Shown: positions 1,661 to 14,113 of the stretch, piece after piece
Position numbering within the stretch: the stretch's first letter is position 1
Layout of the letters: every line of letters begins with the position of its first letter
Origin: a virus
Lineage: Duplodnaviria > Heunggongvirae > Uroviricota > Caudoviricetes
DNA length: 64,000 nt
Reading direction: 5' to 3' (one strand)
Virus record (IMG/VR): IMGVR_UViG_3300008107_000010
Position numbers and translations under genes: made by a program
Notes under the pieces: model-generated
The model's input: the letters and a program-made list of their open reading frames with translations, nothing else
Told to the model about the DNA's origin: nothing
The model's database searches: none

Positions 1661-2857
1661 TTAAAATAATGATGTTGAATAAATTAAGTTACGATTTAAT
1701 GTTTGAAGACCGATAGAATCTAATACTCGATTTAACGGATCAATCATACTTTTTTCAAATTGCACTTCATAATCGATTGGAGGAGCAATTTCATAAGGAT
1801 GGTCTCCTGGGAAATATGCAAACATTTCACAATTTTTATGGTTACAATGATACAATTTAAGTTTTTCACCGTTACCAATTAACTTATACTTATTCTTGTA
1901 TTTTTGATTATTGTTTAGTAGATAATTATAGAATCCAGCAGCTTTTACATTTGGTGGACATTTAGAACCATATTGAAATTCGATATGGTCATCTACAATA
2001 TATTTCTCAATGTTATTAGTCCTTTTATTAAAAGAAATATCGTCAATGTCGGCCATTTTAAATTCTTTCTTAGTTTTCTTTAGAAAGTTAACAATTTTTG
2101 TTAGTGTTTCTGTTGTTGGCTTTTCTGTAAAAAGAATTTGTAATGCTTCAGTTAATTTTTTACGAATAAAAGTTGGTGTTGAAGATTGAATCGAATCAAA
2201 TCCGATAACTTTTACCTTTTTCAAAGAAGGATATCGCTCATGTGTTTTTAGCTTATCTTCCCATGCAATATCTTGAATATACTTTTTCTTAGCCATCCAA
2301 ATGCCTGAATACGCTATTGATTCAAGTTCAAACTGTAAGAAGCTTTCAGTGTTTTTAGAAGATGCATATTTATCTAATGCTTTAACAATATAATCTCTAA
2401 TTCGTAAATCATAAATTGTTAAAATAAAAGTTGCGATGTCCATCTTTTCACCAAGCCATTCAATAGAATCATACATTTCTTCAAATTGAACATAATTTGA
2501 ATCAGTATCAATATAAATTACAGCTTCTTTATAAATATTATTTTTTACTTTAATATTTAATTTCTTATGAACTTCCGTATCTTTAATAAAGAATTCTTGG
2601 AAATATTTGTTTAGAATTTTAGCCGAATATAAAATTGCATTTTGGCCTTGTAGTGTAATAGATTCTGCAATATCGATGTTGAAAAAGTGAAACCACTTGT
2701 TACCAAAGGCTCCATAGATCGAGTTTAGAGTTACTTTAACTGCTTGTTCATACGCGGTAAACTTGGCCGACTCATTGCTAAAATGAGTGGCCAAGATTTC
2801 TAACTCGTTTCTAGTAAGTTGATCTTCAGGTTTATTTAGTAGTTCCTCAATTGTCAT
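1661..2857 (-). CDS. polB: Family B DNA polymerase, C-terminal subunit (split gp43-like)
   Basis: Motif B KVTLNSIYG, motif C YIDTDS, KKKY, KVKVIGFD, KAAGFYN; lacks the exonuclease domain and motif A; ends TSLF. Confidence 0.93.
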   Translation of the reverse strand: MTIEELLNKPEDQLTRNELEILATHFSNESAKFTAYEQAVKVTLNSIYGAFGNKWFHFFNIDIAESITLQGQNAILYSAKILNKYFQEFFIKDTEVHKKLNIKVKNNIYKEAVIYIDTDSNYVQFEEMYDSIEWLGEKMDIATFILTIYDLRIRDYIVKALDKYASSKNTESFLQFELESIAYSGIWMAKKKYIQDIAWEDKLKTHERYPSLKKVKVIGFDSIQSSTPTFIRKKLTEALQILFTEKPTTETLTKIVNFLKKTKKEFKMADIDDISFNKRTNNIEKYIVDDHIEFQYGSKCPPNVKAAGFYNYLLNNNQKYKNKYKLIGNGEKLKLYHCNHKNCEMFAYFPGDHPYEIAPPIDYEVQFEKSMIDPLNRVLDSIGLQTLNRNLIYSTSLF

Positions 2858-6747: not shown

Positions 6748-8157
6748 TTAATCTTTTTTCTTAGCTAATAACTTTTTATAGTAATCTGCTTTTTCGTATA
6801 ACTGGTATGATGTTGATTTGTATTGTTTACGTTTTGAATATAAATCAGAAAGAATCATTTTTAACATTGAATCTTCTTTATTATAAACAACACCATTCTC
6901 GCAAACAATAACATTTTTATCTTTTCGACGCTCTTCAATTTTCGAAGCAGGTACCTTTTCAATAAAGGCATCTGGAGAAATATTAAACTGTCGCATGATT
7001 GATGGATATAGAGATGCAAAGTCAAATGCACTTACTCCAGCATAGAAACCAACTTTAGGTTCTTTAACAAAAGCTCCGGCATATTGTGTTTCTTTTTTAC
7101 CATCTTCACGTTGTTCTGAACCGATTCTAAATCCAGATTCTGCCATCTTACGAGCAATTAATGCTTCAGTTACAGCAACTGGAGAAGCAGCTTTATAAAT
7201 TGGCATTCTAGTAATATTAGCAAGAGTTAAAAGTACTTCCATTGATTTTAACTTTTTATCAATATAATATACTAGAACGGAGTCAACTACGTTATAATAA
7301 ACATACTTTTTAAAATCGTCTCGATATAAATCTTGTAAGCCTCCATTGTATTTAATTTTATTTAAATTTAATACTTGGCCAGAAACATAATCAAGTGAAT
7401 TTGATTCTTTAACTTTTACAGATTTATCATACTTATCATAAAGTTGCATGTAGTCAAGAATACCCATGTGTAATGGTCTTGAATCGGTTGGATCAACTGC
7501 TTTTGTAATTGCAGATTCAGCAATGTCAATTTGTAAATGCTTACAACGATTTACAATATATTGCCAGTCATAATTAATAAAATTCCAGCCGGTCATCATT
7601 GGAAACTTAGGCATAAATTTATACAAAAATGTATAAACCATGTCATACTCGGTTTTAAACTTAATATATTGAAAAGTCCAATCAGTGTCTAATGATTTAA
7701 AATATTCATTAGTATCTTTTTCAATTTGAGCGATTTGTTCTGAACTTAAATCTTCTAAACCTAATACGATTGCCTTTTTATTTGGAGTAATAATTGAAAA
7801 AGTAAGGATTCTTGATTTTGCTTCTTCAGCTCTTGGAAAACCGTCAACAATCTCAGTTTCAATGTCGACAAAATAAGTTTTTGGCATATTGTATGCGTAA
7901 ATTTCTTCTTTGTCTTTTTCAGAAAGACTGTCCATGAAATATACTAGCGAAAACTTATTAAACTGACGGGACGGCTGCAACTTAATTGCTCTGCCGTCCC
8001 AGTTTTTAAATTTTTGGCTTGCTTCGCGCTCTTTTTGGTCACAAACAAACCAGTTTTGATACTGATTAATTGGGTATCTCTTAAATGCAACTTCACCTTC
8101 TTTATTGTAAAAAGAGATCATTACCTCTTTATCTCTTTGCTCAATATCTAATAACAT
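6748..8157 (-). CDS. polB: Family B DNA polymerase, N-terminal subunit (3'-5' exonuclease plus motif A)
   Basis: ExoI FVDIETE, ExoII TGWNFINYDWQYI, ExoIII YYNVVDSVL, motif A FDFASLYPSIM; ends after the first fingers helix (LYSKRKQYK). Confidence 0.93.
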   Translation of the reverse strand: MLLDIEQRDKEVMISFYNKEGEVAFKRYPINQYQNWFVCDQKEREASQKFKNWDGRAIKLQPSRQFNKFSLVYFMDSLSEKDKEEIYAYNMPKTYFVDIETEIVDGFPRAEEAKSRILTFSIITPNKKAIVLGLEDLSSEQIAQIEKDTNEYFKSLDTDWTFQYIKFKTEYDMVYTFLYKFMPKFPMMTGWNFINYDWQYIVNRCKHLQIDIAESAITKAVDPTDSRPLHMGILDYMQLYDKYDKSVKVKESNSLDYVSGQVLNLNKIKYNGGLQDLYRDDFKKYVYYNVVDSVLVYYIDKKLKSMEVLLTLANITRMPIYKAASPVAVTEALIARKMAESGFRIGSEQREDGKKETQYAGAFVKEPKVGFYAGVSAFDFASLYPSIMRQFNISPDAFIEKVPASKIEERRKDKNVIVCENGVVYNKEDSMLKMILSDLYSKRKQYKSTSYQLYEKADYYKKLLAKKKD

Positions 8158-8624
8158 TAATATCCTCGTTTTTGGCGTTGCTTATTCTCTTCTGCTTTTG
8201 CAAAGTAGTAATTGTATGCTGTTTTTGCATCTAATCCAATAGATGCTGCATAATTTATAAAGAAGTGTAGAATATCTACCCATTCCATATAAAGCTCTTT
8301 GCGATCGTTTTCTGAAAGATCGGAAATTTTCAGGTTTTCATACTTTGTATGAGCTGTTTTCCAATACTTCCATACTGCATTACCATCTCCATCTTTAATG
8401 CCACCAAGTGCATCGGTCATTTCATGAATTTCATCAAGCACTGCGTGAGTGTTAACATGCCAGAAATTCATAATATCTCTGATTGTCATGTTATCAAAAT
8501 CAAAGCCATAAGTTTTTTCTTGCATTTCTTTTTGGTGGTTCATTATATCCGCCAAGTGTGTTGTAGATTTATCATAGAAGTCATTTACTTCTAAATCTTT
8601 ACATTCATTATCAATATTTGCCAT
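8157..8624 (-). CDS. All-alpha dNTP pyrophosphatase (dimeric dUTPase / T4 gp56 dCTPase-like)
   Basis: DEIHEMTDA, WKYWK, EWVDILHF, Y..K..EN..RQ.RGY signature of this family. Confidence 0.85.
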   Translation of the reverse strand: MANIDNECKDLEVNDFYDKSTTHLADIMNHQKEMQEKTYGFDFDNMTIRDIMNFWHVNTHAVLDEIHEMTDALGGIKDGDGNAVWKYWKTAHTKYENLKISDLSENDRKELYMEWVDILHFFINYAASIGLDAKTAYNYYFAKAEENKQRQKRGY

Positions 8625-8640
8625 ATACTATTTTATAGTT

Positions 8641-9069
8641 TTATTTATTATTGTTTACGAATTTAATATAATCGTGAATATAATTTCTGATTCTTTCAGA
8701 TCCGACAGGATTCATTGAATGTACATGAAATTCTGGAAATTTTAACTTATTGTCAATACAATACTCTACCAAAAATTTAGCACAGTCCAAACCTGTTTTT
8801 TCTTCAAATTCTTGCGGATAATCAGCGCCATCTCCACACATTGCTGGAGAATAATGTTCATCTGCTAAATCATGGTCAAAAGATACTAATTCAGGAACTC
8901 CATTAGTTACAATCCATTTTACGAATTGATTGTAATCTTTAACAATATCCCACTGTTTTTGGGTATAATCAGCAGCCGCAAGTCCAATACGAGCAGGCAT
9001 ATATGCAATACAATCGTATGGATGCCTAAAATCGTCTAAGAATAAATTTTTGATATTACTTGCTTTCAT
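8641..9069 (-). CDS. Cyclic-phosphate-processing receiver-like domain protein
   Basis: LFLDDFRHP, VSFDHDL, TGLDCAKFL, HSMNPVG motifs. Start moved to MKAS (9069), just after the promoter at 9075-9102. Confidence 0.7.
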   Translation of the reverse strand: MKASNIKNLFLDDFRHPYDCIAYMPARIGLAAADYTQKQWDIVKDYNQFVKWIVTNGVPELVSFDHDLADEHYSPAMCGDGADYPQEFEEKTGLDCAKFLVEYCIDNKLKFPEFHVHSMNPVGSERIRNYIHDYIKFVNNNK

Positions 9070-9074
9070 AATAG

Positions 9075-9102
9075 TTATATTAGAAAAGCGCGTTTTGTTC
9101 AA
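9075..9102 (-). promoter_or_regulatory. Putative phage promoter TTGAAC-N15-AATATAA
   Basis: Variant of the repeated motif, 5 nt before the ATG at 9069. Confidence 0.5.
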
Positions 9103-10129
9103 AATTATTATTAAAAAAGTACTCCATAACTGAATCATCGGTTCTGGCTACTTTTCGACGGCTAATTAAATGCGGATTGTTTCTTAGTCGGTAATAAACT
9201 CCATACTGACAAAGACCAACTTCGCAGCCATAAGTTTTAAGATCGTTTTGTTCTTCTTGGAAAATTTTCTTACCATCAACGTAAACATTATGCGTGGATT
9301 CATGTAATGGAATGTCTCCAATTAGATCTTTGTAGTTTTCTCGGAACCAAATAACTCTATCGCCATAAGGAATATCACATCCTTCGCCAAACATAAGATC
9401 TAATGTATATCTAGCACCAGGACCAGGAACACAGAATCTTTCGTCATGGTTAATTGGAATTCTTGGATTTACAGAATTAGACGTTGAACAGTGATATCCG
9501 TAGTATTGTCCCACACCTTCAAGCGAGGAGATAATATCATACATCTCACTTAAAGATTTTACTTGGGCCATTCTACCTGTGATTCCTCGAGGTATAAAAG
9601 ATGCTACCCATAATAGAATATTGATTTTATGAGCATCTCTTGGTTGATTTCTTAACTGAGCAACATAATTATTCGCAGCACCAAAAAGACTTGTACGTAA
9701 TTCCGTACTTCCATAGATTGGTAAACCTAAAGAAACGGCATCTTCTAAATTTTTACGGATTTTATCTTCATATTCTCTATCAACTAAAAGTCTTTCAAAA
9801 TCAACTAAAGCTGTTTTAGGATTCGGGTCTCTTGTTAATACTTGGTGAATTCCACGAGCTCCATAGAAGTGAGAAATAATTGTGTTGCAAATAATATTAT
9901 CCATTGAGATTGGAGCATACACGATGTTCTCCATGATATATCTCATACGATCGTCTAGAGTAATTTGAGGATGGAAATATTCAACTGTTTCTCCAAGAGC
10001 ATCGTCTCCACCACTGTCGTAACTTTCAAGAACACCCATATTATAGAGTGCTCTTTCATTTACTTTATTAAAGAATCGTCCAACGTCTTTTACAACGTCC
10101 ATATTGACTTGTTCAATTATATTACTCAT
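9080..10129 (-). CDS. aGPT-Pplase1 / amino-acid:DNA-transferase-like DNA-modifying enzyme (HhH-glycosylase-like fold)
   Basis: Helix-hairpin-helix-like LEGVGQYYGY, FCVPGPGARYTL, late EVGLCQYGVY motif matching this family's E..LCE..KY pattern; divergent. Confidence 0.65.
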   Translation of the reverse strand: MSNIIEQVNMDVVKDVGRFFNKVNERALYNMGVLESYDSGGDDALGETVEYFHPQITLDDRMRYIMENIVYAPISMDNIICNTIISHFYGARGIHQVLTRDPNPKTALVDFERLLVDREYEDKIRKNLEDAVSLGLPIYGSTELRTSLFGAANNYVAQLRNQPRDAHKINILLWVASFIPRGITGRMAQVKSLSEMYDIISSLEGVGQYYGYHCSTSNSVNPRIPINHDERFCVPGPGARYTLDLMFGEGCDIPYGDRVIWFRENYKDLIGDIPLHESTHNVYVDGKKIFQEEQNDLKTYGCEVGLCQYGVYYRLRNNPHLISRRKVARTDDSVMEYFFNNNFEQNALF

Positions 10130-10138
10130 AATATTATT

Positions 10139-10810
10139 TTATTTTTTAAACCAACAATCATATCCAGCAGTTTTATTAAAAACTGTAAATGCATGTACAT
10201 GATTATGGTTTGGATATAATTCAACCAATCTTTCAATTGCAGGTTCAGCAAATCGTTTTACTTTACCCATATGAAGTTCAACAAATAAAACTTCTGGATG
10301 ATAGGCTTCAACAGCTTGTAAAATTTCGTATTCAGCTCCTTCAATATCGATTTTAATAATGTCTGGTCTATATTTGTCTAATAACTCCTGAATATTAAAA
10401 TTGTTTACTTCATCATAATCTGAAAATTGACTACGTTTCATAATTGAAGTAGAACAATGCGCTTGTTTACTTTTACCTTTATAGATTCTAAGAGTTGGGC
10501 ATGTTTGTCCAGAAACTGCACCGTGTATGATGTTTGCCTTTGGCTCATTTCTAAAACTATTCATCATTTTTTCATAGTTTCTAGAATCGCATTCAACCGT
10601 ATAAACAGCTTGAGCTCCACCATCAATTGCAATCTTTGTAAACCCTCCAATATTACCACCTAAATCTAAACATACTTTACCAGTATAATCAATTTCTGGT
10701 TTTATGTAATGTATAATGCAATCGGTAATCATGTTATTATCGACGCGTTCAGTTGCATTTAGGTACCTAAGGTAATGTTTCTTTAATCCTTTTTGGAAAT
10801 CATTTAACAT
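10139..10810 (-). CDS. FkbM-family SAM-dependent methyltransferase
   Basis: VCLDLGGNIGGF, VYTVE, IIKIDIEGAEYEIL. Confidence 0.85.
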   Translation of the reverse strand: MLNDFQKGLKKHYLRYLNATERVDNNMITDCIIHYIKPEIDYTGKVCLDLGGNIGGFTKIAIDGGAQAVYTVECDSRNYEKMMNSFRNEPKANIIHGAVSGQTCPTLRIYKGKSKQAHCSTSIMKRSQFSDYDEVNNFNIQELLDKYRPDIIKIDIEGAEYEILQAVEAYHPEVLFVELHMGKVKRFAEPAIERLVELYPNHNHVHAFTVFNKTAGYDCWFKK

Positions 10811-10818
10811 ATTTTATA

Positions 10819-11187
10819 TTATTTTTCTACTAAATTTGATACAATATGGACTATGTCAAGATCTGGATGTTCTTGTTTAATCACAGCAATTTGAACTTCA
10901 TCATCATCGAAAAAACGCTCAACAATAATTCCCTGTTCTGCCAATTCTCTAATTGTTTTTGCTTTATGTTTTCCAGAGAATACTCTAGCTTCAACACTAT
11001 GATTTCCTCTTTCAGCCAATGTCATTTGATTAAAATATACATTGGTTGAGATTCCCATTTCAGATAGTTTTTCAAAAACATAGGGTGCTTCTTCTTGACA
11101 ACGACCAGTAATAATAACATCGTCACTATATCTAGGACAAACACCAATTGATACTACACCATCAAAATCGTATGCAAATATTTTCAT
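10819..11187 (-). CDS. Small HAD-superfamily phosphatase
   Basis: Motif I YDFDGV, motif II IITGR, conserved K (HKAKTI), motif IV FFDDD. Start at MKIF; the longer track start lies inside the terminator hairpin. Confidence 0.8.
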   Translation of the reverse strand: MKIFAYDFDGVVSIGVCPRYSDDVIITGRCQEEAPYVFEKLSEMGISTNVYFNQMTLAERGNHSVEARVFSGKHKAKTIRELAEQGIIVERFFDDDEVQIAVIKQEHPDLDIVHIVSNLVEK

Positions 11188-11200
11188 TTCTTTCTTTTTT

Positions 11201-11231
11201 AAAAAAAGATGGAGAGCAAAACTCTCCATCT
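11201..11231 (-). terminator. Intrinsic terminator after ino1
   Basis: Perfect 10-bp stem AGATGGAGAG-TTTTG-CTCTCCATCT followed by a T-run on the minus strand. Confidence 0.85.
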
Positions 11232-11242
11232 ATTTGGATTAA

Positions 11243-12421
11243 TTAAGCCTTAACTTGTTTCTCTGTAACTTTAGTAAGTTTACGATTTGCTAAAGCTTCG
11301 CATTCTTGAACAGCGTCAACAAACATCATTTGTTGAGGCGGTGTCTTTTGAGTAAATGCAGATGGTCCACGAAGAGCACCAACAATTCCCATTTCTCTTG
11401 CAACTCTAACATAACGTAGAGCGTCAATTACAACTCCTGCGGAGTTTGGACTATCTTGTACAGATAGTTGAGCATCAAAAATAACCGGTGCTCCACCAAA
11501 TCCTTCAAGTTCTAAACGGAAGTTTGCAACTTTATTATCTCCATAGTAAGAGATATATTCAGAAGGACCAGCATGTAAGAATGAACCTTCGGTTGAGATT
11601 CCACGAATATCATTCTGAGCACGAATTACATTCTCTTTAGAAATCTTTTTAGATTTCAAACGAGATTTATCTTCCATATTCAAGAAGTCAGTATTACCAC
11701 CAACATTACGTTGAATATGTGCTCTTACTACGTGGCCTCTTTCGAATGCAAGTTCTTGTAACATTTGAGACAAGATAGATGCACCAAATTGAGAACGCAT
11801 ATCATCACCGATCAATGGAATTCCTGCGTCGATAAAACGTTTCTCCCATGCTGGATCAGATGCAATAAATACTGGAATACAGTTAACAAAAGAGATTCCA
11901 GTTTCTAGACAAATTTCTGCCCAAAATTCTGTTGCTGCTTGAGAACCTACTGGTAAGTAGTTAATCAATACCTCAACTTCATGTTCTTTTAATTGAGAGA
12001 TGATTTTGTCTTTCCACTGTCTGTCTTTTTTATCAGTCCATTCAGTACGATTAGTTTCAGTTGAATTTCTCAACTCTTCAGAAACCAAGAAACGATTTGT
12101 TTCTGGATATGCATCCATTAACAATGCGTAACCATCAATAACTGGTGCTTCATATACTGGAGCAGTAGAATCGATAGTTGGAACAATGTCCCATGCAGAG
12201 TTTGGACGCTGCTTCAATGCAACACCTAATGGTTGATTTACTTTACGTTCATCAATATCAAAAGCACAAACGAATTCAATATCTTTTGCACCATATCCAC
12301 CAATGTCGCTACGCATCATACCGTCGATGTTTGCTTCATTTTCGGTGTAGAATTGTACTCCTTCTACTAGAGACTTGGCACAATTTCCTGTACCAATAAT
12401 TGCAACTTTAATTTTACTCAT
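11243..12421 (-). CDS. ino1: Myo-inositol-1-phosphate (inositol-3-phosphate) synthase, bacterial type
   Basis: IIGTGNCAKSLVEG, AFDID..KV, NYLPVGS, NCIPVFIA, GDDMRSQFGA, NVGGNTDFLNM, RLKSKKISK, DSPNSAGVVIDA; all core motifs are intact. Confidence 0.96.
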   Translation of the reverse strand: MSKIKVAIIGTGNCAKSLVEGVQFYTENEANIDGMMRSDIGGYGAKDIEFVCAFDIDERKVNQPLGVALKQRPNSAWDIVPTIDSTAPVYEAPVIDGYALLMDAYPETNRFLVSEELRNSTETNRTEWTDKKDRQWKDKIISQLKEHEVEVLINYLPVGSQAATEFWAEICLETGISFVNCIPVFIASDPAWEKRFIDAGIPLIGDDMRSQFGASILSQMLQELAFERGHVVRAHIQRNVGGNTDFLNMEDKSRLKSKKISKENVIRAQNDIRGISTEGSFLHAGPSEYISYYGDNKVANFRLELEGFGGAPVIFDAQLSVQDSPNSAGVVIDALRYVRVAREMGIVGALRGPSAFTQKTPPQQMMFVDAVQECEALANRKLTKVTEKQVKA

Positions 12422-12444: not shown

Positions 12445-12472
12445 TTATACTTATAATTTATAAAAGGTTTCA
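12445..12472 (-). promoter_or_regulatory. Putative phage promoter TGAAAC-N15-AGTATAA
   Basis: Copy of the repeated motif directly upstream of ino1. Confidence 0.55.
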
Positions 12473-13519
12473 AAATAGGCTAGTAACTTTTGGTTTAAGT
12501 TCTGGATTCTTTTTTCCGGTTTCAAAGTCATATTGATAATATTTCCTTGAAAGGTGCACCGATCCGGGTTTTTCCATATACATATCCGCATAGTCTTTAG
12601 GGCTAAGTTGATACCATTCGATTGGCCATTCGATTAATTCGTATCCGGCCTCACTTAGATATATACTCAGCTTTTGATTAAAAATTCGACAAATTTCTAA
12701 TCTTTTTTCTAAAGATCCATAAAAAGGTGTTCCTTTGTAGAATCCAGTTTTTGGAATTCTGCGTTCTTCATGATCGATTGGTAATAATTTGACTACACTA
12801 ATCTTTGGAATGTTTAAAGATTTTAAATGTTCAACATAATTCTTAACCAAATCTTCAGTTGCTTTAACCGGATCTGGTTGTCGGCATAAATGGTGTCGAA
12901 TATCAATATTACCAAAATACGTAATTAGGTGTTTAGTTCCTTCTGGAATATAGGTTGTCATACCTTCTTTAATAACTCCAAATAATGTTTTACCATCATT
13001 TCGACTGATATTTGAGCCTGGTACATAAACTGAAACCGAATGGCTATCACCTAACACAAATATATCAGACTTTAGAGTTGTATCTATTGTCTGAGTTTCT
13101 ACTGATTTTGTACTTAAAGTTTCAACATCAAGATTTTTCCAAATCTCAGTACATGCATTCATTCTGCTTTTAGCAAATGCTCCAATGTCTGGCATTTGTC
13201 TATTTAGACAATACACAGATCCTTTAAAATCTATTAGCCTTTGCATTCTAATTGCAGTTTCATCATTAGCACCGCCAAATAAATTGTAACTTCCTTGAAA
13301 TTCCATTGGTAAAGCTACTAACCAAACGTCATAGTTATGAACATTTGCATCTTTGGTTAAAACGGTAGCATCAATACCTAGACTCTTTAATTGTGACATT
13401 AATAAATATGTCCATGCTGATTTATGAGATTCTGGTTTTGAACTATAAGTAGTAACCACATCATCTATTGCAACTTTTTTACCAAGTAAAGAATCTTTTA
13501 TATCGTAGATGCTTATCAT
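12470..13519 (-). CDS. Two-domain protein: beta-glucosyltransferase-like N domain plus SGNH-like C domain
   Basis: N-half KVAI..YLL..LKSLG..V.NYD..YNLFGG..FKGSVYCL resembles the T4 BGT acceptor domain as recalled; C-half has LGDSHS, FGNIDIRHH and SVH; ends TSLF. Confidence 0.5.
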   Translation of the reverse strand: MISIYDIKDSLLGKKVAIDDVVTTYSSKPESHKSAWTYLLMSQLKSLGIDATVLTKDANVHNYDVWLVALPMEFQGSYNLFGGANDETAIRMQRLIDFKGSVYCLNRQMPDIGAFAKSRMNACTEIWKNLDVETLSTKSVETQTIDTTLKSDIFVLGDSHSVSVYVPGSNISRNDGKTLFGVIKEGMTTYIPEGTKHLITYFGNIDIRHHLCRQPDPVKATEDLVKNYVEHLKSLNIPKISVVKLLPIDHEERRIPKTGFYKGTPFYGSLEKRLEICRIFNQKLSIYLSEAGYELIEWPIEWYQLSPKDYADMYMEKPGSVHLSRKYYQYDFETGKKNPELKPKVTSLF

Positions 13520-13860
13520 TTTAAAAGCTTTTTAATAAGAGATGGTAAATATGTAAATGAAATAATAATGCCAAAACTAAACATTATTACGGCTAACTCT
13601 TTAGTCTGAGCATTAAATTGTTCATGCGACATCCATAGAGTGTTTGCTGTTAACCAACAAAGTATTGATATATTTTCCATCTTTTCGAAAAATCTATCAC
13701 TCCATTTAATTAATAGAACCGAGATTATGATTGTTGGAATTGCAAGTGTTAAACTTAAAACACCAAATCCCATCATCCACGCTAAATCTTTAAGAATCCA
13801 CATTGGAAAATGGATCACTTCTAAAACGTCTTTACTTCTTTGTTCCTTCGTTCTTTTCAT
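13516..13860 (-). CDS. Small integral membrane protein
   Basis: About four hydrophobic segments; H..MWILKDLAW and ENISILCWLTANTLWM resemble a bacterial membrane family; ATGA overlap with the downstream gene. Confidence 0.7.
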   Translation of the reverse strand: MKRTKEQRSKDVLEVIHFPMWILKDLAWMMGFGVLSLTLAIPTIIISVLLIKWSDRFFEKMENISILCWLTANTLWMSHEQFNAQTKELAVIMFSFGIIISFTYLPSLIKKLLK

Positions 13861-14113
13861 TAATATAATTTTCTAAACCTTGAATATACGCAACTGCATC
13901 AAGCAAATTATCTCGTTTGTGATTATAACTTTCACGCGAGAATTTAAGCGCTACTAGCGCCATAAACATTTCACGACCCGTAACATTAAGTCCGGTCATA
14001 CCATTAAAAATCATTGCTGCTCGATCCATGCCTTCTGAAAATGGACCATATTGGCGATCTGCTTCTTCTGAACGATTGTTGACAATCTTGTCTGCTTCTT
14101 CTAAAATACTCAT
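13832..14113 (-). CDS. DUF6378-like small helical protein (possible nucleotide pyrophosphohydrolase)
   Basis: ILEEA..IV..R...YG, MVALKFSR, HKRDNLLDAVAY. Confidence 0.7.
   Translation of the reverse strand: MSILEEADKIVNNRSEEADRQYGPFSEGMDRAAMIFNGMTGLNVTGREMFMALVALKFSRESYNHKRDNLLDAVAYIQGLENYINEKNEGTKK

Follow-up and report, generated by a model that had tools for sequence, protein, structure and literature searches.

A Phage Protein Family Joining a Beta-Glucosyltransferase-like Acceptor Domain to an SGNH-Fold Domain, a Candidate Modifier of 5-Hydroxymethylcytosine in DNA

We analyzed a gene located on the minus strand at positions 12470..13519 of a 64,000-nucleotide stretch of tailed-phage DNA (IMG/VR record IMGVR_UViG_3300008107_000010, hereafter the window). 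The encoded protein of 349 amino acid residues (P0001) joins an N-terminal domain homologous to the acceptor half of the T4 DNA beta-glucosyltransferase (BGT) to a C-terminal domain of the SGNH fold, and both resemblances lie far beyond chance expectation. The family of this protein most likely decorates 5-hydroxymethylcytosine (hmC) in phage DNA by chemistry so far unseen on DNA. Judging from sequence and context, we consider it rather probable that the protein is a post-replicative modifier of hmC-containing DNA, which acts by covalent acyl transfer through Ser159 in a cleft to which the BGT-derived domain contributes, together with a helical partner protein.

Domain Organization and Family

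The open reading frame (ORF) was genuine and open on translation. An earlier note, made from the letters of the window, had proposed a fusion of a BGT-like domain with an SGNH-like domain on the basis of short motifs, and all of these were found in the translated protein: KVAI (residues 15-18), YLL...LKSLG (38-48), NYD..LV (62-68), YNLFGG (78-83), FKGSVYCL (98-105), GDSH (157-160), GNID (203-206), and SVH (320-322). The protein matched PHROG 13881 (E 4e-58), whose function is unknown. No match was obtained against Pfam (E up to 0.1) or NCBIfam, and neither the protein nor its separate domains had a relevant match among PDB sequences. The AlphaFold model of the full-length protein had a predicted local distance difference test (pLDDT) score of 91.5 and a predicted template modeling (pTM) score of 0.89.

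The family comprised 1,158 clusters at 90% identity (E <0.001), none of them named, and 233 clusters at 50% identity; its members came from phages of marine and freshwater settings and from phages of aquaculture pathogens. A family alignment of 150 representatives was built from an exhaustive hidden Markov model search of 1.84 billion representative sequences, and the conservation counts out of 150 given below refer to it. The N-terminal and SGNH domains occurred together in all of the 131 full-length representatives having the N-terminal domain (131/131), while a GT-B or other sugar-nucleotide donor domain was found in none of them (0/131). The pairing of the BGT-like N-terminal domain with the SGNH domain is obligate within the family. 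Profile, fold and family-wide evidence agreed that the SGNH domain stands in the place of the UDP-sugar-binding domain, as had been supposed from the sequence alone.

The N-Terminal Domain

The core of the N-terminal domain (residues 14-120; 13160..13480, minus strand, as all features of this gene) was homologous to residues 1-116 of the T4 BGT acceptor domain. Comparison of the family profile with that of the BGT family (42 sequences from a separate search; T4 BGT was taken from NC_000866) by hhalign yielded a probability of 97.8% and an E value of 1.2e-12 over 101 columns (14-120 against 1-116). The reversed-template control gave a probability of 0.3%, and the C-terminal half of the family compared with the BGT family gave 1.2%. 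BLASTP aligned residues 15-105 with residues 2-97 of T4 BGT (E 0.017 in this single comparison) in the same register as the alignment that the earlier note had drawn by eye, placing NLFGG (residues 79-83; 13271..13285) over the NFFGG of BGT (residues 70-74), a putative base-flipping loop in the view of that note. The N-x-F-G-G pattern was invariant in the BGT family (N70, G73, and G74 in 42/42) and nearly invariant in the family studied here (N79 in 144/150, G83 in 145/150). A near-invariant pair, Ser31-His32 (13424..13429; 147 and 149 of 150, respectively), was family-specific and had no counterpart in BGT.

Folded alone, the N-terminal domain was modeled with a pLDDT of 90.5. In an exhaustive structure search by VIA against 48,161 PDB representatives, its best match was T4 BGT itself (1c3j_A; Z 6.3, root-mean-square deviation (rmsd) 3.7, 108 residues aligned, model 14-150 on BGT 1-140), and T4 alpha-glucosyltransferase took rank 12. 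A search of BFVD returned members of the family and only weak glycosyltransferase matches. We regard the structural match to BGT as corroborative; the main weight lies on the profile comparison.

The C-Terminal Domain

The SGNH fold of residues 151-340 (12500..13069), also suspected in the earlier note, was borne out by structural comparison, with a Foldseek probability of 1.0 against carbohydrate acetylesterases and VIA Z scores of up to 11.9 (7tog_A, 4rsh_A). About 50 SGNH/GDSL chains matched residues ~150-340 (Z 9-11.9, rmsd ~3, 145-180 residues aligned), including carbohydrate acetylesterases, sialate O-acetylesterase, and the peptidoglycan O-acetyltransferases PatB and OatA. The Pfam Lipase_GDSL model was matched below threshold only (PF00657 in 21/42 members, best E 1.7e-4; E 0.12 in the protein itself).

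Block I was represented by GDSH (residues 157-160; 13040..13051) with the putative nucleophile Ser159 (149/150), and block II by Gly176 (126/150). Block III corresponded to GNID (residues 203-206; 12902..12913) with Asn204, the residue of the oxyanion hole (Asn in 125/150, Ser in 20); R208-H209-H210 come next. In block V, SVH (residues 320-322; 12554..12562), His322 was conserved in 147/150 and had no Asp at position -3, with the invariant Glu316 nearby. Both the model and the 150-sequence alignment placed Ser159, Gly176, Asn204, and His322 in canonical order relative to the strands. Invariant Glu316, His160, Arg208, His210, Arg253, and Arg273 make the site unusually charged. A conserved loop, RRIPKTG (residues 253-259; 12743..12763), was modeled with a pLDDT below 50 and is a possible mobile lid. 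Residue 249 (12773-12775), within a P-I-E-x-E-x-R-R motif, is Asp in the protein; Glu occupies this position in 140/150 representatives and Asp in 2/150.

Glu316 might stand in for the block V Asp, or the site might operate as a Ser-His dyad. The absence of this Asp, together with the presence of the OSK domain of Oskar among the structural matches (5a4a_A, Z 10.0), could also suggest a silent SGNH pseudo-enzyme, a DNA-binding scaffold which recruits the partner to replicating DNA. We consider this very improbable, because Ser159, His322, Asp158, His160, and Glu316 were kept in 147-150 of the 150 representatives at an identity under 30%, which is typical of active enzymes.

Fusions with Partner Proteins

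Recurrent fusions provided the clearest functional evidence on the module. In the window, a gene at 9080..10129 (minus strand) encoded a helical protein of the HMUDK_hel family (Pfam PF18723, E 1.7e-12), and elsewhere this partner is fused to the target family. Aeromonas phages 44RR2.8t and 31 encoded a 795-residue protein, the first 335 residues of which are the target module, the remainder matching the partner from the window. A metagenomic protein of 981 residues (P0138) combined an FkbM methyltransferase, an HMUDK_hel-like domain, and the target module, all three being neighbors in the window. In eight further fusions, the target module was joined to a second neighbor family, L004_376, encoded just downstream of the target in the class-B loci described below (hhalign probability 100%).

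In phage M6, the HMUDK_hel protein gp55 adjoins the 5-hydroxymethyldeoxyuridine (5-hmdU) DNA kinase gp54, and in SP10 the kinase and HMUDK_hel form a single protein (PMC8989533). Since the fusions and adjacency found here parallel M6 gp54-gp55 and SP10, the target module appears to take the place of the kinase next to HMUDK_hel. The phmmer searches with the M6 kinase, amino-acid:DNA transferase (ADDT), pyridoxal phosphate (PLP) enzyme, and gp55 against the ORFs of the window and the loci gave no matches, and no kinase-like P-loop was found near the cluster in the window.

The L004_376 family was grouped with HMUDK_hel/ADDT/aGPT-Pplase clusters by protein-language-model features, which we treat as a lead only. 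HMUDK_hel and aGPT-Pplase were reportedly defined by Iyer et al. in 2013. The class-B partner family had no Pfam or PDB match. As hhalign detected no mutual signal among the window partner, the class-B partner family, the HhH-GPD protein of class C, and M6 gp51, the kinship of the partner families is drawn solely from the language-model features. At L004:4803-6817 and in ~20 class-B loci, the target is accompanied by the unannotated 376-residue family and a weakly PALP-like (PLP-dependent) protein of 295 residues; this pair resembles the ADDT and PLP-decarboxylase pair of phage M6. The C-terminal extension of one of the fusion proteins, P0215 (residues 311-375), showed a weak match to the N-terminal domain of monogalactosyldiacylglycerol (MGDG) synthase (E 8e-4, below threshold), but profile comparison assigned it to the 376-residue partner family.

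A further link between the protein, its partner, and replication was found at the C-terminus. The protein ends in SLF (12473..12481), a candidate sliding-clamp tether common to the partner and the C-terminal half of the family-B polymerase; these three were the only proteins with Leu-Phe ends among the 54 minus-strand ORFs of at least 90 residues. The tail of the T4 and RB69 polymerases docks on the sliding clamp, and T4 gp43 ends in ...SLDFLFG. The LF tail was clade-specific, being present in 43/150 representatives of the family and in most class-A partners. It lends support, though not decisively, to action at replicating DNA.

Gene Neighborhood

The window was AT-rich (~32% GC), and its minus strand held nearly all genes. 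The surroundings of the target gene were formed by genes of replication and nucleotide metabolism, i.e., a split family-B polymerase, ribonucleotide reductase, and a UvsX-like recombinase. Neighbors were counted in 80 viral loci carrying target relatives: DUF6378 was present in 71, myo-inositol-1-phosphate synthase (MIPS) in 53, an HMUDK_hel-like protein in 44, and a dUTPase_2-like protein in 43. The target and DUF6378 were constant across the three classes of loci, and the side-group genes varied.

Class A (53 loci, including the window) starts with DUF6378, the target, MIPS, and a small HAD-like protein, usually followed by FkbM, then by the HMUDK_hel-like protein, sometimes cREC, and the dUTPase_2-like protein. 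The corresponding genes of the window, all on the minus strand, were DUF6378 (13832..14113), the most constant neighbor; the MIPS homologue (11243..12421), an accessory of class A; the small HAD-like protein (10819..11229), with a DxD start, whose homologue in locus L006 matched HAD/acid-phosphatase Pfam families; the FkbM-family methyltransferase (10139..10810); and a dUTPase_2-like protein of 155 residues (8157..8624), a candidate dCTPase/dUTPase which ends the clusters of classes A and B. Class B (~20 loci) was composed of DUF6378, the target, the second partner family, the weakly PALP-like protein, and the dUTPase_2-like protein. Class C (~6 loci) contained an HhH-GPD protein, DUF6378, the target, and a thymidylate-synthase paralogue.

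This neighborhood bears on whether the protein acts on DNA at all. It could be a cytoplasmic esterase or acyltransferase of a small molecule, lipid, or glycan (e.g., host inositol lipids or envelope sugars), its linkage to replication genes being incidental. In favor of this, SGNH is a fold typically met in esterases of lipids and carbohydrates, a soluble cyclitol could be the product of MIPS and a methyltransferase, and a gene for a small membrane protein lies directly upstream in the lineage of the window. That membrane gene is, however, restricted to the closest relatives, and the specific homology to the acceptor domain of a DNA glucosyltransferase, the independent fusions to two HMUDK_hel/ADDT-like families, the constant linkage to dCTPase-like and hydroxymethylase genes, and the LF tail common to the target and the polymerase all argue against such a role, which we consider quite improbable. 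The supposition of the earlier note that the protein is a DNA-acting enzyme thus received indirect support, from the homology to the BGT acceptor domain, the HMUDK_hel fusions, the linkage to dCMP-hydroxymethylase and dCTPase-like genes, and the occurrence of the family in hmC phages without glucosyltransferase.

Several features of the loci are recorded here in their own right. The predicted membrane protein (114 residues; 13516-13860, minus strand) is encoded by a gene overlapping both DUF6378 and the target; among the 80 loci, it was found only in the nearest relative, L008. On the minus strand, a strong GC-containing hairpin of 10-11 bp with a T-run behind it (11207-11231) is located at the start of the HAD-like gene, just after MIPS, and might act inside the cluster as a terminator or attenuator. 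In a promoter and terminator scan of the cluster, sites did not exceed the shuffled-sequence level. The cREC_REC ORF (8641-9138) has 59 bases in common with the end of the partner gene; because its Pfam match begins at residue 31, its true start is probably an internal ATG. In Aeromonas phage 44RR2.8t.2, the gene directly upstream of that for the 795-residue fusion protein encodes a sodium:solute symporter (L001:4438-5961; Pfam SSF, E 6e-53), which may bring in the precursor of the side group; class-A phages make this precursor themselves. Two genes of the window (1661-2857 and 6748-8157, minus strand), ~4 kb apart, divide the family-B polymerase into an exonuclease/N-terminal and a C-terminal part, with both ribonucleotide reductase subunits and an unknown ORF of 250 residues between them; L007 is arranged alike. 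The nearest record, a 48-kb fragment (G001), did not contain the target gene.

Precursor Base and Carrier Genomes

Thymidylate-synthase paralogues were found adjoining the target or elsewhere in the genomes of relatives, and they were dCMP hydroxymethylases of the gp42 type. Like T4 gp42, they had Cys-Thr after the catalytic Cys and Asp at the base-specificity (N177) position; they kept D169, and canonical ThyA was present alongside. Aeromonas phage 44RR2.8t.2 had the same pair of a hydroxymethylase-type paralogue and ThyA. Replacement of D169 with Asn marks 5-hydroxy-dCMP synthases (PMC13326640). Because the paralogues are gp42-like, retain D169, and co-exist with ThyA, their sequences indicate hmC as the most likely precursor base rather than 5-hydroxymethyluracil (5-hmU). 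Two other acceptors were considered: 5-hmU, prompted by the name HMUDK_hel, was rejected on the residues of the synthase paralogues, and 5-hydroxycytosine (PMC13326640) was disfavored by the retention of D169.

The cultured carriers of the family were T4-like Aeromonas phages, Stenotrophomonas phage IME13, and Tenacibaculum phages. Genes 42 and 56, but no glucosyltransferase genes, are listed for phages 44RR, 31, and 25 by Petrov et al. 2010 (PMC2993671). We failed to find matches to PF18748 (5-hmdU kinase), PF18724 (ADDT), or PF09198 (BGT) in the complete genome of 44RR2.8t.2 or in five large relatives, one of them a 100%-complete genome of 225 kb; in positive controls, these families were matched in M6 or T4, PF18748 in M6 at 1.1e-19. 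Since the kinase, ADDT, and BGT models are silent in carriers possessing gene 42, the target and its partner are the only recognizable candidate for hmC modification in the carrier genomes.

This result also bears on the possibility, raised in part by the earlier note in the form of de-acylation, that the protein is a tailoring esterase or de-acylase, whose BGT-like domain would recognize an already modified base and which would remove or exchange an acyl group, or de-protect an acylated precursor. Most characterized structural neighbors of the SGNH domain are indeed carbohydrate acetylesterases and sialate O-acetylesterases. However, no other enzyme for the first bond (BGT, kinase, or ADDT families) was found in the complete carrier genomes, and the target belongs to the constant core of the cluster, whereas it is the tailoring genes that vary (MIPS/HAD/FkbM, PALP-like, or none). 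A tailoring role is, accordingly, quite unlikely.

Proposed Function

In the mechanism that we propose, the N-terminal domain, inherited from the acceptor half of a T4-type BGT, would position the hmC of DNA at the inter-domain cleft. The UDP-sugar half would have been swapped for an SGNH domain with the Ser159/His322 pair and an oxyanion hole (Gly176, Asn204), and this domain would carry out ester (acyl-transfer) chemistry on the 5-CH2OH group via a covalent Ser159 intermediate. The protein would cooperate with the neighboring HMUDK_hel-type protein, occupying the position beside it at which thymidine-hypermodifying phages have the P-loop 5-hmdU DNA kinase. The homologies, pairing, fusions, and linkage described above are observations; from these we infer the hmC-DNA substrate, the acyl chemistry, the order of the steps, and the identity of the donor and the final adduct.

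Within this mechanism, the form that we favor, with a confidence somewhat short of even, is that the ester serves as an activating leaving group and is then displaced by a nucleophile; the analogous group would be the phosphate of 5-phosphomethyldeoxyuridine (5-PmdU). This form is favored because the module replaces the kinase beside HMUDK_hel and because the variable genes seem suited to supplying nucleophiles. In the lineage of the window, the nucleophile would be myo-inositol or its methyl ether, produced by the synthase, the phosphatase, and the FkbM methyltransferase encoded next to the target; in class B, it is perhaps an amino acid. The complete scheme, in which the SGNH acyltransferase esterifies hmC without any kinase and the HMUDK_hel-type partner exchanges the ester for a cyclitol made by the phage, is put forward tentatively.

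A number of results weigh against the proposed acyl transfer to hmC in DNA. The VIA score of the N-terminal domain against BGT (Z 6.3) is low and was equaled by generic flavodoxin-like folds, and Foldseek against PDB returned only weak generic matches to flavodoxin-like, GATase, and TIR folds, with BGT outside the top 50. Asp100 is named as the catalytic residue of BGT in a preprint (10.1101/2023.12.21.572611); T99-D100, which is T-D in 42/42 BGT relatives, is aligned with a gap, and position 106, the closest in the family, is occupied by D in 51, N in 42, E in 14, and G in 14 of 150 representatives (N in the protein itself). In the SGNH domain, the block V Asp (D-x-x-H) is missing, position -3 from His322 being G/Q/K/R, and the many invariant Arg and His residues could mean a phosphorylated small molecule as the substrate instead of DNA. 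No thymidylate-synthase or hydroxymethylase homologue was found in the 64-kb window, and no acyl-donor or acyl-activating gene was evident in the cluster. SGNH action on nucleic-acid bases was not encountered in the literature searched, which excluded the defining survey of 2013.

BGT Glu22 also lacked conservation in the family, and PF09198 did not match the protein. As Asp100 is not conserved at the aligned position, the protein lies outside the BGT family proper. Lacking the GT-B donor domain, Asp100, and the block V Asp, and remaining below Pfam thresholds, it belongs to neither family by defining features, although in its presumed mode of action it would combine BGT with an SGNH acyltransferase.

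The charged site is also what would be expected of a one-step transferase, in which the SGNH-fold domain would bind a phosphorylated or esterified donor (inositol phosphate, sugar phosphate, or acylated cyclitol) and hmC would be modified without prior activation. The two-lobe BGT-like layout with an exchanged donor lobe, the invariant basic residues near the SGNH motifs (H160, R173, R208, H210, R213, R253, R273), the linkage to MIPS in 53/80 loci, and that to the sodium:solute symporter in 44RR are consistent with such an enzyme. Nevertheless, classes B and C lack MIPS and have the same conserved active site, so that the immediate co-substrate is probably common to all classes; moreover, the SGNH fold has no known precedent for the formation of ether or glycosidic bonds, and the HAD-like gene suggests free inositol as the product, not inositol phosphate. 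We regard one-step transfer as unlikely and retain the acyl-transfer mechanism as the more probable explanation.

Phage DNA hypermodifications counter restriction and CRISPR defenses and are a source of widely used tools; T4 BGT, for example, serves in hmC mapping. Every known route that leads onward from a hydroxymethyl-pyrimidine in DNA begins with a sugar-nucleotide glycosyltransferase or a P-loop kinase, and the family described here would add a third route, one that would have arisen by domain swapping. It offers a concrete candidate for a gap known since 2010, namely that T4-like Aeromonas phages make hydroxymethyl-dCMP (hm-dCMP) without a glucosyltransferase. If the reading with esterification and a cyclitol is true, it would be the first case both of acyl transfer to a base of DNA and of DNA decorated with inositol, and it would reveal which enzyme modifies hmC in Aeromonas phages 44RR, 31, and 25, where one has been missing. 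Several carriers exist in culture, which makes the proposal testable.

Comparison with Known Systems

With T4 BGT (GT63, PF09198), the protein shares a homologous N-terminal Rossmann-like domain of ~100 residues, including the N-x-F-G-G loop and the Y-D strand end, and both proteins occur in T4-like phages making hm-dCMP. BGT, however, has a UDP-glucose-binding C-terminal Rossmann domain where the protein has SGNH; the latter also differs in the absence of conserved Asp100 and Glu22, the possession of its own Ser31-His32 pair, and the lack of a PF09198 match.

The SGNH acyl-transfer enzymes, i.e., PatB, OatA, and carbohydrate acetylesterases (7tjb, 6vjp, 7tog, 4rsh), are similar in fold (Z 9.8-11.9) and in the order of blocks I, II, III, and V with Ser, Gly, Asn, and His. 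Unlike them, the protein is a cytoplasmic phage protein joined to half of a DNA glucosyltransferase; it is devoid of the block V Asp and carries additional invariant residues (H160, R208/H210, R253, R273, E316), and its family reaches Pfam GDSL models only below threshold.

In the 5-hmdU DNA kinase systems (SP10 gp186; M6 gp54 and gp55; PMC8989533), a catalytic module is likewise fused or adjacent to HMUDK_hel, acts (in our case presumably) on a hydroxymethyl-pyrimidine in DNA, and is encoded in clusters with variable tailoring genes. The module described here is of the BGT-N/SGNH type and not a P-loop kinase; PF18748 and PF18724 are absent from the carrier genomes searched, and the precursor is most likely hmC, not hmU.

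The arabinosyl-cytosine systems of RB69 and DLP3 (PMC6024577, PMC13326640) also belong to T4 relatives to which the list of 2010 assigned gene 42 but no glucosyltransferase, and there, too, a different modifying enzyme fills the glucosyltransferase gap. Their GT-B arabinosyltransferases act on 5-hydroxycytosine produced by D169N thymidylate-synthase homologues, whereas the relatives of the target keep D169, and the target carries an SGNH domain in place of the GT-B donor domain.

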